From: a virus
Length of the DNA: 64,000 bases
Virus record (IMG/VR): IMGVR_UViG_3300020599_000003
Span: 96,001-160,000 of that record
Reading direction: 5' to 3' (one strand)
Under the pieces are notes generated by a model. It had not been told where the DNA came from and ran no database searches. It was given only the letters and a program-made list of their open reading frames with translations. Of this stretch, positions 21,392 to 63,475 are shown piece after piece. How positions within the stretch are numbered: position 1 is the first letter of the stretch; each line of letters opens with the position of its first letter. Both the position numbers and the translations under genes were made by a program.

Positions 21392-23262
21392 CCGAGTTTG
21401 TGCTTGACTGCCCCCAACCTGGAGCTATTGCGCTTCATCAGGTCCAGTCGGTAGTTGGGGTCCTTGCTGGCAGTAGCAGCGATCTTCGCGATGTCCGCAT
21501 TGACCTTATGGCGCTTCTCTGCCTGAAGCATGGAAGGTACTGCTTTCCGCTTCCCGGTCCGAGTGTAGTCGTAATGTTCAGTGGGAACGCCGGGGAAACG
21601 AGCGAGCAGCGGAACCTTCGGCACATACTGGTCGTACTGCGACAGGGGGATGGTCGGCATGCGACGGTAGGAGGCTTCGGCGTGGTAATCGCCTTCGTCA
21701 GCGACGTCGTCGTAATCGCTGACCCCGAGGGAGACTTCGGAGTCGGTCTCGTGCGAGGTGTCCTTGCCAGTGATCTGTTCAATCTTCCGGCGAAGCAGGA
21801 CATCTTCATCCATATCGCGCAACAGGGCTTCCGGATCGATCTTCGCAGCGGCCATGTAGCGCAGCAGCGGGATGGGTACACCGTGCTCGGACGCCTTCTC
21901 CAGCATCTCGAACGTGTTAAACTCGTCCAGGGCTTGGAGGTCCTTCTTCCAGTGGACGCGAGGCATGATCAGGTTGGCCCGATCGTTCGCGTTGTAGAAA
22001 TAGTCCTCGAAGGTCTTGCTGCGCGTGAGGGTCGGGTCCTTGAAGAAGCCATTGATGATGGCAACCATCGGGAAGATGCGCTGGTAGAACACACGATGGG
22101 TGAGCTTCTCCCGGAATTCGTTCAGGCCCTCCAGGAACATGGAGTAGGACGATTCGTGCGCCTGGAAGGTCACACCGTCTGCGCCGAGGAACGCCTCAGA
22201 CACCCCGAGGGAGCGGAGCTTGTACTGGACGAGGGAGTCCATCACATCAGTCCACTTCCAGAAGTCACCACCCGGACGCAGGTCCGTAGCCTGGACAGAG
22301 TTGCGCGTCGTAACCCACCCACCAATGGGGTCCAGCTCGGCTGCCATGAACTGCTCAACGAGGGCGGCAAGCTCCTGGCCTGTGGGAGTCCAGTCGCTGT
22401 CGCCTGCCGTGACGTGTGTCATGGCACGCTGACGACGTTGCGCTTCTGTGAGAGTGCCACGGAACATGGCCTTCTCGAACAGATAGATGGGCAACAGGCG
22501 ATGCAAGAAGGATACGTACGGACGATCCGTCATCGGGCCACGCGGGATGAACAGCGTGGTTGCCGGGTTCAGATCGAAGCGCCCCGTGTTCAGCAAGTCC
22601 CGGAACGCCGCAGGCAGAGAGTTGATGTAGCGGAGGTTGTACTCGGAGTTGTTGTGCAGGAACTGACTGATCGCGTTCGACACCGTGACCTGGATGTTCG
22701 GGTCCTTGTTGAAGAACGGAGTGGTGCGCACCGAGCATTGCAAGGCATCGTGGATCATCGTGTCCGAGAAGCGCTTCTTGTACGCATCGTAGATCACCGT
22801 GCCACAGAAGAAGCCGTCCACAAGATGGGACCAGCCGATCTTCTGGAACATGCCCCGGAGGTTGAGCTGCGACACGGCATCCGTGTACACCCGCTTACGA
22901 TCCGGGTCGATGCCGTTCAGGTCGAAGTCCGAGAACGGGAGGTTCAGCATGAGGTCCACGACCGAGCCGCCGACGCTGTCGTACAGGTAGATGTCGCGCC
23001 AGAAGAAGTTCAGCGCGGCAGGGTCCGACAGATAGGGCTCAGCCGGGAGGATCCCTGTGAAGTAATACTGATACTGCGACGGCCACAGAGTGTTGACCAT
23101 CAGGTTCGCGCCGTTGCCCAGACCATTCAGGTTGCCGTTGCTCGGGGCCGCATCAGCAGTGAGCTGGTGCGGAGGTTTGGGCCGGAAGGTCGGCGACGAG
23201 ACAGGCTGTCCTCGCGAGGCTTGGTTGGAGGCTATAGCCCGGATGATGTGATCTTTCGACAT
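21388..23262 (-). CDS. Portal protein
   Basis: 624 aa; IYLYDSVGGSVVDLMLNLPFSDF, HLVDGFFCG, FLHRLLPIYLFEK, LRSLGVSEAFL; terminase 8 kb away. Confidence 0.8.
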   Translation of the reverse strand: MSKDHIIRAIASNQASRGQPVSSPTFRPKPPHQLTADAAPSNGNLNGLGNGANLMVNTLWPSQYQYYFTGILPAEPYLSDPAALNFFWRDIYLYDSVGGSVVDLMLNLPFSDFDLNGIDPDRKRVYTDAVSQLNLRGMFQKIGWSHLVDGFFCGTVIYDAYKKRFSDTMIHDALQCSVRTTPFFNKDPNIQVTVSNAISQFLHNNSEYNLRYINSLPAAFRDLLNTGRFDLNPATTLFIPRGPMTDRPYVSFLHRLLPIYLFEKAMFRGTLTEAQRRQRAMTHVTAGDSDWTPTGQELAALVEQFMAAELDPIGGWVTTRNSVQATDLRPGGDFWKWTDVMDSLVQYKLRSLGVSEAFLGADGVTFQAHESSYSMFLEGLNEFREKLTHRVFYQRIFPMVAIINGFFKDPTLTRSKTFEDYFYNANDRANLIMPRVHWKKDLQALDEFNTFEMLEKASEHGVPIPLLRYMAAAKIDPEALLRDMDEDVLLRRKIEQITGKDTSHETDSEVSLGVSDYDDVADEGDYHAEASYRRMPTIPLSQYDQYVPKVPLLARFPGVPTEHYDYTRTGKRKAVPSMLQAEKRHKVNADIAKIAATASKDPNYRLDLMKRNSSRLGAVKHKLG

Positions 23263-59208: not shown

Positions 59209-62200
59209 TTACTTCTTGTCCTTGTCGGTAGGTTCGAAGGAGTATGCAGCCGCCATCTTGAGTGCGTCGGGGACTACGTTGATGGCTTCAGGGACACCAA
59301 GCAGCGGGAATCGCTTGTGCAGGTATGCACGAGTGTTCTTGTTGATCCACGGTGCGAAGGCGCGCCTCATCGCTTCCTTCGGACTGCAGTCCAGCAGGCC
59401 CAACTTCTCGCCGTCCTTGATCGACTCGCCGATGCATTCGACCAGCGACTTCATGCTGAAGTCGAACTTGTACGAGTTGGAATCGTCCATCCCGAATTCA
59501 GCCTCGATCTCCGGCTCGATGGTGTATTCCAAGCCGAAGTACTTCTTCACACGGTCGCGCGAACCGTAGGTGGCCTCATGCATCATGATGTGGAGCAGCG
59601 GGATCACCATGTCTATTGGAACCATGAAGTAAGATGCATCATGGACGATACGCTGCACGTACAGCTTCGATGCGTGCTCCACGTCGAGATCTAGCTCCTT
59701 GGCAATAACCGGCGCTTCCATGTAGAACGTCTTGTCGATGGCCCGATTGGCTTCCGTACCCTGCTCCGATGCTACACCCTGGATAGGGGCGTTGACACCT
59801 CGACGAACCTGCTTGGCCTGCGCCTGATTCTCCTGGATGAGCGCGGCGTACAGATGGCGGATGCGGCCGAAGGGCGAATACACGTGGAGCTTCTCCACGG
59901 CCTGCTTCTTCATGCGTTCGAGCCACGCGGCACCGCGCGGGAAGGCTGCTAGAAGCTTGTCCATGATGCCCTGAGCATATTCCTCACGATCCTCGGCACG
60001 GATCTTGGCCATCATGCGCAATTGCTCGGCGACTTCCCTGTCGATCTCAGCGGCTCGCTTGGGATCAACCCCCGCCTTCTTCTCCTTGCGCAGCGCGACG
60101 ATCTTGTCCTTGATCGCTACGATGTCCGCCGCCTTGGTTTGCTCACCGAGCGAGGCAGCACCCAGGCCGTAGATGGTGCCGAACACGGCGCGCTTAACGG
60201 CGTCACGCAGCGAGTCGGACTTCTCGACGATCTTGTTGAAGAACAGCTTGACGTTCTGAATGTGAACATCCCCGTCAGTCTTGATTTTCTTCTTGACCTC
60301 ATCTGTTGGCGTAAGGATCCATTGCTGTCGTAACTTCTGCCCCTTGCGGAACGTGTCCGCAATCACCTTGTCGCCCGACACAATCGACCAGAACCGCACC
60401 TCGTGCGCGGAGAAGTCGAACTTGAGCAGGATATAACCCTTGCGCGCCACGAACGCCCGCTTGATCAGCTTGGCAGCGCGACCTCGCTGTGGAATAACTT
60501 GGAGCGAAGGTTCATACGACGCCAGACGACCAGTGGTCACACCCATGTACGAGTAGTCAGGGCGCAGCGTGTAGTCCGTAACACCGTCAATTGTGGTGCG
60601 CAGGCGCTTCAACCAGCCCCGCGCATACGTGCCGTAGAGCTTGTCGATTTCCTGGTATTCCGCGTAGGTCTCGACCTCGGCCACGCTCATCTTGTACTGT
60701 TCGATGAACACCTTGTCGATGGCAGGTTGACCTTTGTCCGTGAAATCAACTGGCTCTAGCTTGAGTTGGTCGATGAATAGCGCAATGCGGTGGGCGGGCT
60801 TGGACGGAGTGAACAACCACTTCGACGCCGAAGCCGCCGACGGAGCTTCCTTGGCCCACAGACCCATGCCCCGGAAACCTGAGTTGCCCAGCAGGGCGGC
60901 ATTGGTTGCCTGGACGCTGTCGTAGGCCCGCAGCTCCTCGTCCTTCTCGTGGATTTCGATCTTAAGCGGAGAGTTGTCGCTAACCAGATGGCGCAGGTAA
61001 TCCACGTCTATTGCTGAGCCACACTGTCGCATGCGCGAAAGCTGATGCTCGGTTTCGCCCATGATGTACCGCATGTGGCGCCGGAAATACGGCGCGTAGT
61101 TGCGATCACCGATGAGCTGGTGCGAGGCACGCAGCATCTGTGCTCTCTTGAGTAGTTGCAGGTGCAGCACGTCGGCCGCGCAATATTTCAGCAGGCCGGG
61201 GTCGTTTGGTGGCACCTGACCGCAGGTGTCCCGCTCTTCCTTACCGAACTCCGCCGTGCTGTAGAAGTCGGACCCATAGTAGTGCGAGACGTAGCTCAAG
61301 CCGCCAGACGGCGTACCAAAGACCTTGAGCTGGTTGGCGTTCTCGTCCAGCAGATGCTCGCCCGCACGAATCTCCCAGACGTAGTGGGGCACGATCTGCA
61401 CACCCAGCACCGAGCGGATGATCCGCAAGTCGAATGCACCGTTGAAGAACAGGAGCTCGGGCAGCTCGGTGTTGTCGCAGATTTGGTGGATGCGGTGATT
61501 GGGGTGATACTTCTTCTCCCCGTTGTACTTCTTGCGGTAGAAGCTGCGGTCGCCGCGGAACGCACTGCGCAGCGTGGCCGACCAGCGTTTAGTCTGCTCC
61601 GGGGTCAGCGGCGTGGACGGGTGGTTCAACGGGATGATGTACTGCGCCCCGAGTTCTTCCTCGAAACAGAACTGGATCATGTAGATCGCGTTCTTGTACA
61701 CCGAGAGGCTTCGCGTTTCCGTGTCGATTGCCACAGCCTTGGTTTTGCGCAGCTTTTCCATGACTGCGTTGAACTTGGCATCGGTGTCAACGAAGCGCGG
61801 GCGCAGGTTCCTCTTGAACTCCGGGCCAATGTCGTAGGGGTTGCGCCCAATGATCAGGTTGGCTAGGTGATGGCACCAGAAGCCGAACAGATTGCCCTTC
61901 GCACCGTCCATTTCGATAAGGCGGGCGAAGTCGAGCGTGTTGACTGTCGGGAGGGTGACTTTGCCGTAGGGCAGTTGGTGATACCAGCCGCGCTTGAGCT
62001 GACTGTCCTTCACCGTCGGGTGCATGGCTTTCATGGCCTGATCACCGGCTATCAGGACCTTGTGAGGCTTAACCTTCTGGATGATTTCATGCACGCGGCG
62101 GGCGAACCGCGCCTCTTCCTGAGCACGCAGCTCAGGTGGAAGGTGCAAGTGTTTACGAGCATTGAAGTTGACGACCGTGTAGGTCGGCGGGGTTAGGTCG

Positions 62201-62418
62201 GGATCGATGCGCCGGGCGTGCTGCCGCGCGTAAGCGACAACGGCCTTGAAGGTGGGCATCACCTCCTTGGACAGAAGCGTCTTGGCTTCGATGTCCCGGA
62301 AATCCACCGACTGCATGACGATCAGAATATGGTTGGACGTCGAGCGGTGGTCATCCTGGTAGAGCGAGAGGTCGTAGGACTCCCCGAACTCCTTGGGTTC
62401 GTACTTGAATCGTGCCAT
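59209..62418 (-). CDS. polA: Family A DNA polymerase with a 3'-5' exonuclease and a UDG-like N-terminal domain
   Basis: Exonuclease AIDTET, FNGAFDL, YCAADV; polymerase TGRLAS, FDFSAHEVR, RDAVKRAVFGTIYG, NAPIQG, VHDA. About 200 extra N-terminal residues (IQKVKPHKVLIAGDQA) resemble UDG-fold domains. Confidence 0.93.
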   Translation of the reverse strand: MARFKYEPKEFGESYDLSLYQDDHRSTSNHILIVMQSVDFRDIEAKTLLSKEVMPTFKAVVAYARQHARRIDPDLTPPTYTVVNFNARKHLHLPPELRAQEEARFARRVHEIIQKVKPHKVLIAGDQAMKAMHPTVKDSQLKRGWYHQLPYGKVTLPTVNTLDFARLIEMDGAKGNLFGFWCHHLANLIIGRNPYDIGPEFKRNLRPRFVDTDAKFNAVMEKLRKTKAVAIDTETRSLSVYKNAIYMIQFCFEEELGAQYIIPLNHPSTPLTPEQTKRWSATLRSAFRGDRSFYRKKYNGEKKYHPNHRIHQICDNTELPELLFFNGAFDLRIIRSVLGVQIVPHYVWEIRAGEHLLDENANQLKVFGTPSGGLSYVSHYYGSDFYSTAEFGKEERDTCGQVPPNDPGLLKYCAADVLHLQLLKRAQMLRASHQLIGDRNYAPYFRRHMRYIMGETEHQLSRMRQCGSAIDVDYLRHLVSDNSPLKIEIHEKDEELRAYDSVQATNAALLGNSGFRGMGLWAKEAPSAASASKWLFTPSKPAHRIALFIDQLKLEPVDFTDKGQPAIDKVFIEQYKMSVAEVETYAEYQEIDKLYGTYARGWLKRLRTTIDGVTDYTLRPDYSYMGVTTGRLASYEPSLQVIPQRGRAAKLIKRAFVARKGYILLKFDFSAHEVRFWSIVSGDKVIADTFRKGQKLRQQWILTPTDEVKKKIKTDGDVHIQNVKLFFNKIVEKSDSLRDAVKRAVFGTIYGLGAASLGEQTKAADIVAIKDKIVALRKEKKAGVDPKRAAEIDREVAEQLRMMAKIRAEDREEYAQGIMDKLLAAFPRGAAWLERMKKQAVEKLHVYSPFGRIRHLYAALIQENQAQAKQVRRGVNAPIQGVASEQGTEANRAIDKTFYMEAPVIAKELDLDVEHASKLYVQRIVHDASYFMVPIDMVIPLLHIMMHEATYGSRDRVKKYFGLEYTIEPEIEAEFGMDDSNSYKFDFSMKSLVECIGESIKDGEKLGLLDCSPKEAMRRAFAPWINKNTRAYLHKRFPLLGVPEAINVVPDALKMAAAYSFEPTDKDKK

Positions 62419-62498
62419 TGTGTGCTGTCTCTCTAGCTATGGCGTTGGAAATGCAAAAGGGCCAGGAATCACCCCGGCCCTGTACTGCTGATGCGTAT

Positions 62499-62852
62499 TT
62501 ACGCCGAAGCGCGCTGCTCAGCTCGGAGCAGCTTCAGCTCACGGGCAGCGTCGCGCAGGCGATCGAGGTTCTTGGTCGAGGCGTCATCCGCCCACGCAAG
62601 CGCAGCAGCCAGCACGTCGGATTCCGCGATCTCGATGTCTTCGGGAACTACGATTTCCAGGCTATGGATACGCACGCTGGAACGTGTGGCGAGAAGCCCC
62701 GTAAGCTCGGCTTCCTGAAAGTCCTGCTTGAGCTTGTCCAGCTGTTCCTGGGTAGGTTCCCAGTCCGGGTTGCCTGCCGTGATGTGCGTCATGGTGCGCG
62801 TCTTCGCCGCACGCAGGCTGATGGGCAGTTGGGGTTCGCTGCGCTCGCTCAT
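62499..62852 (-). CDS. Small protein containing a paralogue of a portal segment
   Basis: Start MSERSE at 62852; MTHITAGNPDWEPTQEQLDKLKQDFQEAEL..ATRSSV aligns to portal MTHVTAGDSDWTPTGQELAALVEQFMAAEL..TTRNSV. Confidence 0.7.
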   Translation of the reverse strand: MSERSEPQLPISLRAAKTRTMTHITAGNPDWEPTQEQLDKLKQDFQEAELTGLLATRSSVRIHSLEIVVPEDIEIAESDVLAAALAWADDASTKNLDRLRDAARELKLLRAEQRASA

Positions 62853-63169
62853 TCGAGTTCGTCCAGTCCTTTGTCCAACTCGTCCAACTCGTCCTGCTCG
62901 CCGCGCTCGAAGCACAGCACGTTGCTGATCGAGATCAGGTGGACGTCCTCGCTGATGCGCGTGAAGCGGTCGTAGTACACGGTGTCGCCGACCTTGACTT
63001 CGTTGTACACCGTCTTGCCATACTCGGTACGGGCACGGGCGACGGCCTTGACCACGCCGACCTTGTATTCACGGTTCGTGGTTTGTGCCAGCACGATGCC
63101 GCCGGCCGAGGTCTTCTCGTCGTCTTTCGGGGTGACCAAGACGCGGTCGCCAAATACTTGCAATGTCAC
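62849..63169 (-). CDS. groES: GroES-like co-chaperonin
   Basis: LQVFGDRVLV, KTSAGGIVL, G.VKAV, VKVGDTVYY. Confidence 0.9.
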   Translation of the reverse strand: MTLQVFGDRVLVTPKDDEKTSAGGIVLAQTTNREYKVGVVKAVARARTEYGKTVYNEVKVGDTVYYDRFTRISEDVHLISISNVLCFERGEQDELDELDKGLDELE

Positions 63170-63217: not shown

Positions 63218-63475
63218 TTACTGCTTTGGCAGGAAGTCCAGGTTCCAGCGAATGCTGCGGCTGGCCCAGATATTGACGCGAGTTTGTAGGTTGTCGGGGC
63301 GGCAATGCACGCCAAACCCGGCGATGCGGCCCGCGCTATGCTCGTTGCGCAGGAAGCGGGTAAGGCCCGTGACGATGTCAGCGTAGGCATCGGATGGACG
63401 CTCGTTGTTTTGGACCGCCTGCGCATAGAGCGTCTGGAGCTGGCCCTGCAAAGCAGATGGGTAGTCGGCTGTCAT
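63218..63475 (-). CDS. Hypothetical protein
   Basis: 85-aa ORF coupled to the helicase stop (ATGA). Confidence 0.55.
   Translation of the reverse strand: MTADYPSALQGQLQTLYAQAVQNNERPSDAYADIVTGLTRFLRNEHSAGRIAGFGVHCRPDNLQTRVNIWASRSIRWNLDFLPKQ

Follow-up and report, generated by a model that had tools for sequence, protein, structure and literature searches.

The short gene P0001 (62499..62852, minus strand) encodes a free-standing portal clip domain followed by a C-terminal helical hairpin. The gene is found in the window, a 64,000-nucleotide stretch of a 177.8-kb virus record (about 178 kb) with direct terminal repeats, and the source genome is phiRSL1-like, its relatives being Ralstonia phage phiRSL1, Achromobacter phage Motura and the Burkholderia phages BcepSaruman and BCSR5. 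As read from the open reading frame and its translation, the 117-residue protein is composed of a short N-terminal lead, a clip-like module (residues 17-67; 62652..62804, minus strand) and the hairpin (residues 71-116; 62505..62642, minus strand). The module, delineated by BLASTP, HMM, hhalign and AlphaFold2 (AF2), spans the end of a stem helix, a strand, a helix and a further strand, and the hairpin was recognized by AF2 and a structure search. The assigned start codon is supported by the orthologues, which have 117-122 residues and retain the N-terminal MSER..EP lead.

Among the steps by which a phage head is assembled, the formation of the portal ring is one of the less well understood, and the clip is where the packaging motor, the neck and no fewer than two host immune sensors converge. 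Conserved soluble copies of the clip offer a direct experimental handle on portal ring formation, with natural GroES fusions and members in the cultured phages BcepSaruman, Motura and BCSR5.

Relationship to the portal clip

The original prediction had recognized, by hand, about 21 identities in 43 positions between the mini-protein and a segment of the portal protein encoded 40 kb away. By BLASTP, residues 17-61 of P0001 align significantly with residues 277-324 of the portal (22/48 identical, 46%; 65% positives; one 3-residue gap; E 9e-11), and the coordinates given earlier are exact (mini-protein residues 21-61, 62670-62792; portal residues 281-324, 22291-22422). The portal gene (P0002; 21388..23262, minus strand; 624 aa; phrog_16240, E 6.9e-154) lies 39 kb from the mini-gene, in keeping with the distance first quoted. 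When all six frames of the complete 177.8-kb genome were searched with the mini-protein, its own site and the portal (E 3.6e-8) were the only matches. The profile of the free-module family recovers P0001 from its own genome at E 2.9e-26, and the refined module HMM covers residues 18-67 (E 1e-22). Alignment of the free-module family with the portal family by hhalign gives a probability of 98.9% (E 3.5e-17) over portal residues 274-329 (22276..22443, minus strand), such that P0001 and the clip of its own phage's portal family are homologous by sequence.

P0001 is not itself a portal protein. The PHROG portal model phrog_16240 places residues 16-64 of P0001 on profile positions 288-340 of 643 (E 3.9e-5) and nowhere else, and a 117-residue chain bearing a hairpin in place of a wing, stem and crown cannot be the wing-stem-clip-crown protein of about 600 residues. 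Also absent is the DPxGGW loop, in which D311, G314, G315 and W316 of the portal are invariant and P312 nearly so.

The similarity noted at the DNA level amounts to about 65% identity in the core of the alignment and to 77 of 151 aligned bases (about 51%) overall, as counted by hand. This identity is read as that of conserved codons in GC-rich DNA rather than of a recent copy.

An AF2 model of the portal built from 55 homologues (mean pLDDT 65) matches the solved portals of T4 (gp20), G20c, lambda, T7 and HFTV1 with a Foldseek probability of 1.00. In order, the model displays a helix (252-280), a strand-helix-strand unit (281-331, with its helix at 295-309), a second helix (332-351), a loop and a very long helix (366-404), which is, in the model, the canonical succession of stem, clip, stem, tunnel loop and wing helix. 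Since the shared segment falls between the stem helices 252-280 and 332-351, the mini-protein would copy the clip and the final turns of the first stem helix, and the earlier suggestion that the segment is the portal clip region is borne out by this mapping and by the definition of the clip (PMC4493910). The assignment is one of predicted topology, as the solved portals are too distant for a residue-by-residue map; the portal family and T4 gp20 do not align significantly by hhalign, the one aligned fragment, inside the T4 clip and channel loop, serving as a hint only. The clip of T4 gp20 (residues 279-358) is composed of three strands and one helix linking the two stem helices, and it is exposed outside the capsid, where the packaging ATPase and the neck attach (PMC4493910). 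Like the portal clips of T4 gp20 (279-358; 3JA7/6UZC) and of YonE from SPbeta (270-325), P0001 is predicted to run from the end of the first stem helix through a strand, a helix and a strand.

The AF2 monomer model of P0001, made with four orthologues, presents these elements as a strand at 18-24, a helix at 35-51 and a strand at 62-68, with pLDDT values from below 50 to 65; such low confidence over the module would be expected if it needs a partner. The hairpin is modelled as helices 71-89 and 93-116, with block pLDDT values of 79-93 over residues 71-110 and lower values toward the C-terminal end. In a fold search with the P0001 model only the hairpin was matched, by generic helical-hairpin and four-helix-bundle structures (Z up to 8.2), and the predicted hairpin is probably a self-association element. 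The mini-protein has no match in Pfam, NCBIfam or PADLOC, the ESM Atlas gave no usable lead for it, and blastn of the mini-gene locus against cultured phages found nothing. Metagenome and genome scans for orthologue DNA turned up no relative. Searches of PDB sequences with the mini-protein family, and with the portal both as a single sequence and as a profile, returned no credible match; a CdiA-CT entry at E 0.025 was judged a chance match.

Distribution and age of the free clip modules

The mini-gene is not unique to its isolate. Its orthologues P0003, P0004 and P0005, at 83, 65 and 50% identity, have 117-122 residues and keep both the N-terminal lead and the hairpin, and the family profile, searched against 1.8 billion cluster representatives, yielded 88 matches at E<=1e-3, nearly all of 49-280 residues. 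Excluding one false positive and four portal fragments leaves about 85 free-module clusters, of which about 60 are single-module and 29 two-module. The false positive, P0129, is an Ig-like repeat protein (1093 aa, nine repeats) that is unmatched by the refined module HMM, and the portal fragments are P0171, P0179, P0203 and P0205. The module of about 53 residues bears the signature R-x-I-x-H-I-T-A-G...W-x-P-T...F..A...A-T-R-x-G-V, which P0001 fits. The conservation sought by the original prediction is thus present among orthologues, cultured relatives and a broad family.

Known carriers among cultured phages are BcepSaruman (gp209; YP_009904142.1), Motura (gp019; YP_009903608.1) and BCSR5 (QRE00113.1), all with the same free module as P0001. 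Saruman gp209 and Motura gp019 bear two modules per chain, compared with the one module and hairpin of P0001, and the identity is low, at about 30%. A PHROG of unknown function, phrog_11049, is matched by the proteins from Saruman and BCSR5, and neither by Motura gp019 nor by P0001 alone. PaBG has no free module. Full-text searches of the literature returned no published description of stand-alone clip proteins.

Saruman gp209 (154 aa; L001:3872-4336) is labelled 'portal protein' in RefSeq, while the real portal of this phage is encoded at about 150.9 kb of the record. The label is an annotation error, which is corrected here.

A second, diverged paralogue with the module-plus-hairpin design, P0131, has 137 residues. 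The contig recorded for it is as long (48,779 bp) as one that carries an orthologue of the mini-gene along with an 81%-identical portal (P0216 and P0008 being listed with P0131), and a close relative may thus carry two module-plus-hairpin genes, P0131 being the second. In phiRSL1 itself, ORF290 (NC_010811.2 198606-199964; L028:2607-3965) encodes a 452-residue protein with a degenerate clip-like module (profile E 0.006) and an RyR domain (Pfam E 2.9e-11). It lies directly downstream of a Dda-like helicase gene, in a genome without GroES.

In a tree of 161 modules, the clips of portals cluster essentially as a single group with the free modules outside it (3 label changes, compared to 48.6 expected with shuffled labels), and P0001 groups with its orthologues and next with Saruman gp209, not with its own portal. 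Mean identity is 39% among free modules and 59% among portal clips, the free modules diverging faster. In a comparison of 12 genomes, similarity of a free module to the clip of its own portal exceeded that to the clips of other portals by only 2.3 points (permutation p 0.025). This pattern is consistent with a long shared history of modules and portals within genomes and not with recent copying. Because the free modules stand apart from the portal clips on the tree, their split from phiRSL1-type portal clips is taken to be old. The mini-gene was first described as a paralogue of a portal segment; the homology is confirmed, but it is not a recent copy of its own portal.

The portal type is the same in every module-bearing genome or contig whose sequence covers a portal gene. 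The converse does not hold, as 18 of 23 IMG/VR contigs with this portal type are without a free module, among them 3 of the 5 contigs with a completeness of 90% or more; many of the IMG/VR contigs are incomplete, which makes such absences soft, for modules as for GroES.

The architectures built upon the module are varied. Of the 29 two-module proteins, 17 have a first copy limited to a strand and a helix and a complete second copy, and such a tandem comprises three strands and two helices, as many as the clip sheet formed between portal subunits. Single-module proteins often add a possible self-association element, that of P0001 being its hairpin. In other members the module is fused to unrelated small domains, namely N4 gp49-like, DUF1653 and RyR.

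Coupling to the phage GroES gene

Directly upstream of the mini-gene is a phage GroES (Cpn10) gene (62849..63169, minus strand; PF00166, E 9.4e-15), and the sequence can be read directly to reveal that the TGA stop of groES overlaps the ATG of the mini-gene (ATGA). A terminator scan identified a terminator-like hairpin (62458..62481, minus strand) with a 10-bp stem, 7 G-C pairs and a following T run. It is located 18 nt past the mini-gene stop and ahead of the family-A DNA polymerase gene polA (59209-62418; E 1.6e-37), with an RNA fold of -28.1 kcal/mol (z -2.5). The overlap and the terminator indicate that the mini-gene closes a transcription unit containing groES, and the two neighbours are those named in the original prediction. 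No slippery site was seen at the junction of groES and the mini-gene. Like T4 gp31 and RB49 CocO, the GroES of the source genome is phage-encoded without a phage GroEL, none being found in that genome. T4 gp31 serves the major capsid protein.

Between a helicase gene and groES is an 85-residue open reading frame (63218-63475, minus strand) that overlaps the helicase stop by 4 nt and is without a Pfam match.

The association of the module with GroES extends to other phages. Besides the window, four lineages have the module within 2.5 kb of GroES, a count of mutually related genomes and not of independent events. In BcepSaruman the order is module, one gene, GroES; in Motura it is module, thymidylate synthase (ThyA), GroES; and in the IMG/VR contigs G002 and G018 the module and GroES genes are 2.2 kb apart on the same strand. 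Gene order thus varies among lineages, and the linkage persists. The closest form of it is presented by two metagenomic proteins in which GroES and then the module make up one polypeptide, P0146 (174 aa; Cpn10 E 1.1e-11) and P0219 (186 aa), which are 57% identical over 97% of their length, both halves included. The reading frame of P0146 is continuous in an independent contig, and the conservation of the fusion across this divergence argues that it is not an assembly artefact. The long reading frame that surrounds GroES in contig G016 was considered as a further fusion and found not to be one.

Contigs of the fusion-bearing phage (L059, L060; JGI contigs Ga0310811_10035998 and Ga0310811_10123692) have a Motura-like neighbourhood. 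From the translated open reading frames, a thymidylate synthase and a DHFR-like protein are encoded upstream of the fusion, and a QueD-like protein and a possible tRNA-guanine-transglycosylase-like protein downstream; this arrangement would point to a 7-deazaguanine DNA modification cluster beside the fusion.

Each of the two genes also occurs without the other. A free module occurs without a phage GroES in BCSR5, in G013/G017 and in six further contigs, and GroES occurs without a free module in G010 and G016. In our literature searches no clip-like partner or fusion was seen to be described for any phage GroES, and both the coupling and the fusion of clip modules to GroES may be new.

Possible roles of the free clip

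The reading we favour, tentatively and at somewhat less than an even chance, is that the module is a clip-type strand-pairing unit that aids the folding or assembly of the portal together with the chaperonin. Its premise is that the clip strands of neighbouring portal subunits pair into a three-stranded sheet, such that a lone module would be an incomplete sheet in need of a partner strand. The partner might be another module, brought near by the hairpin in P0001 or by tandem '1.5-module' repeats elsewhere, or it might be the clip of a portal subunit not yet assembled. With the phage GroES and the host GroEL, the module would retain portal subunits or hand them over as they fold and assemble into the ring, and its role would be that of a strand-complementing assembly helper. 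In the chaperone-usher systems, PapD and FimC lend a subunit the edge strand that it lacks until it joins its polymer. This donor-strand complementation would provide a mechanistic analogy only, without homology and from another compartment.

Portal biogenesis or packaging is favoured over an immune decoy on account of the translational coupling to groES, the conserved GroES::module fusions and the arrangement of contig G024, where the module gene lies between the large-terminase (TerL) and portal genes. The significant homology to the clip, the conservation of the gene, the constancy of the portal type among module-bearing genomes and the 17 of 29 tandems with three strands in total are counted in favour of the assembly role as well. 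Chaperonin-aided portal assembly has a precedent in the lambda portal gpB, which requires GroES/EL (PMC3224144). Several observations count against this role. The mini-gene is located in a replication or early region, away from the head genes; P0001 is without three residues of the portal DPxGGW loop; the portal type is often found without a free module, even in the more complete contigs; the module part of the AF2 monomer is modelled with low confidence; and other members of the family are fused to unrelated small domains or, as judged by eye, bear Tat/Sec-like signal peptides or a membrane anchor. More than half of the module-bearing genomes are also without a phage GroES, although many of these contigs are incomplete and a host GroES is always available.

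It is a more doubtful proposition that free-standing clips at large constitute a widespread and undescribed class of phage assembly factors, acting by strand complementation with unassembled portals and physically coupled to the chaperonin, in some cases as one GroES-clip polypeptide. If true, such a polypeptide would be a dedicated chaperonin adaptor for the building of portal rings; if the assembly reading is wrong, the family would point to a new kind of immune decoy or packaging regulator.

The functions first proposed for the mini-protein were those of a decoy, a packaging regulator and an exclusion factor. As a decoy, the free clip would bind a clip-recognising host sensor, such as an Avs4-like STAND NTPase or an SpbK-like TIR protein, without activating it and so shield the portal. 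The idea is legitimate, as SpbK docks on the clip of YonE and EcAvs4 engages a portal monomer at its stem, clip and wing (PMC12847820), and the family has traits typical of counter-defence: a patchy distribution, faster evolution than the portal clips, early or accessory locations and many fusions. We nonetheless consider this role unlikely. The advantage of only 2.3 points toward the clip of the resident portal argues against close mimicry of exposed residues, EcAvs4 needs the stem and wing contacts as well, PADLOC matched the mini-protein to no defence-related family, exported variants cannot meet cytoplasmic sensors, and the conserved GroES fusion has no obvious place in such a scheme.

An account that we hold to be improbable to a like degree has the free clip resemble a docking site, binding the large terminase or the neck and adaptor proteins and thereby timing or restraining packaging or hindering competing phages. 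Both the packaging ATPase and the neck attach to the clip (PMC4493910), the position of the G024 module gene would suit this role, and so would early expression if the terminase is to be restrained. The helix and loop residues that would face such partners are, however, variable, with the DPxGGW loop lacking in P0001; a competitor of the resident portal would come at a cost to the phage; and the GroES fusions are left unexplained.

There is rather little likelihood that the module, having left the portal, became a generic small pairing or oligomerisation domain, an adaptor untied from the portal with roles that differ by protein. The fusions to Cpn10, N4 gp49-like, DUF1653 and RyR domains, and the signal peptides or membrane anchor of some members, are what such a domain would display, yet in this analysis the module was found only in phages with the same portal type, its link to GroES is repeated, and it appears once in a terminase-portal block. 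A decaying duplication relic without function is highly improbable, for although the gene is short, far from the structural genes and without a Pfam or NCBIfam family, its frame is intact, its length is kept in orthologues down to 50% identity within a broad family, its split from the portal clips is old, and it is translationally coupled to groES with a terminator of its own.

Individual fusions within the family merit description. A protein of contig G002 (L056:4512-5117) combines the clip module with DUF1653 (PF07866, E 4e-5), and the C-terminal region of P0145 resembles DUF1653 by eye without a Pfam match. In the lineage of P0191, G013 and G017, an N4 gp49/Sf6 gp66-like domain (PF13876) is fused to the module. 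Among P0134, P0150, P0167 and L066:432-719, some start with Tat- or Sec-like signal peptides as judged by eye (e.g. RRSF and a hydrophobic stretch) and one ends in a membrane helix, which implies that exported or membrane-bound versions of the module may be made. The terminase-portal block of G024 (L063:373-10055) encodes a large terminase of 1416 residues and a portal of 1153 residues, both about twice the usual length, with a free clip module of 72 residues between them, and the double length of the two larger proteins suggests inteins or other insertions.
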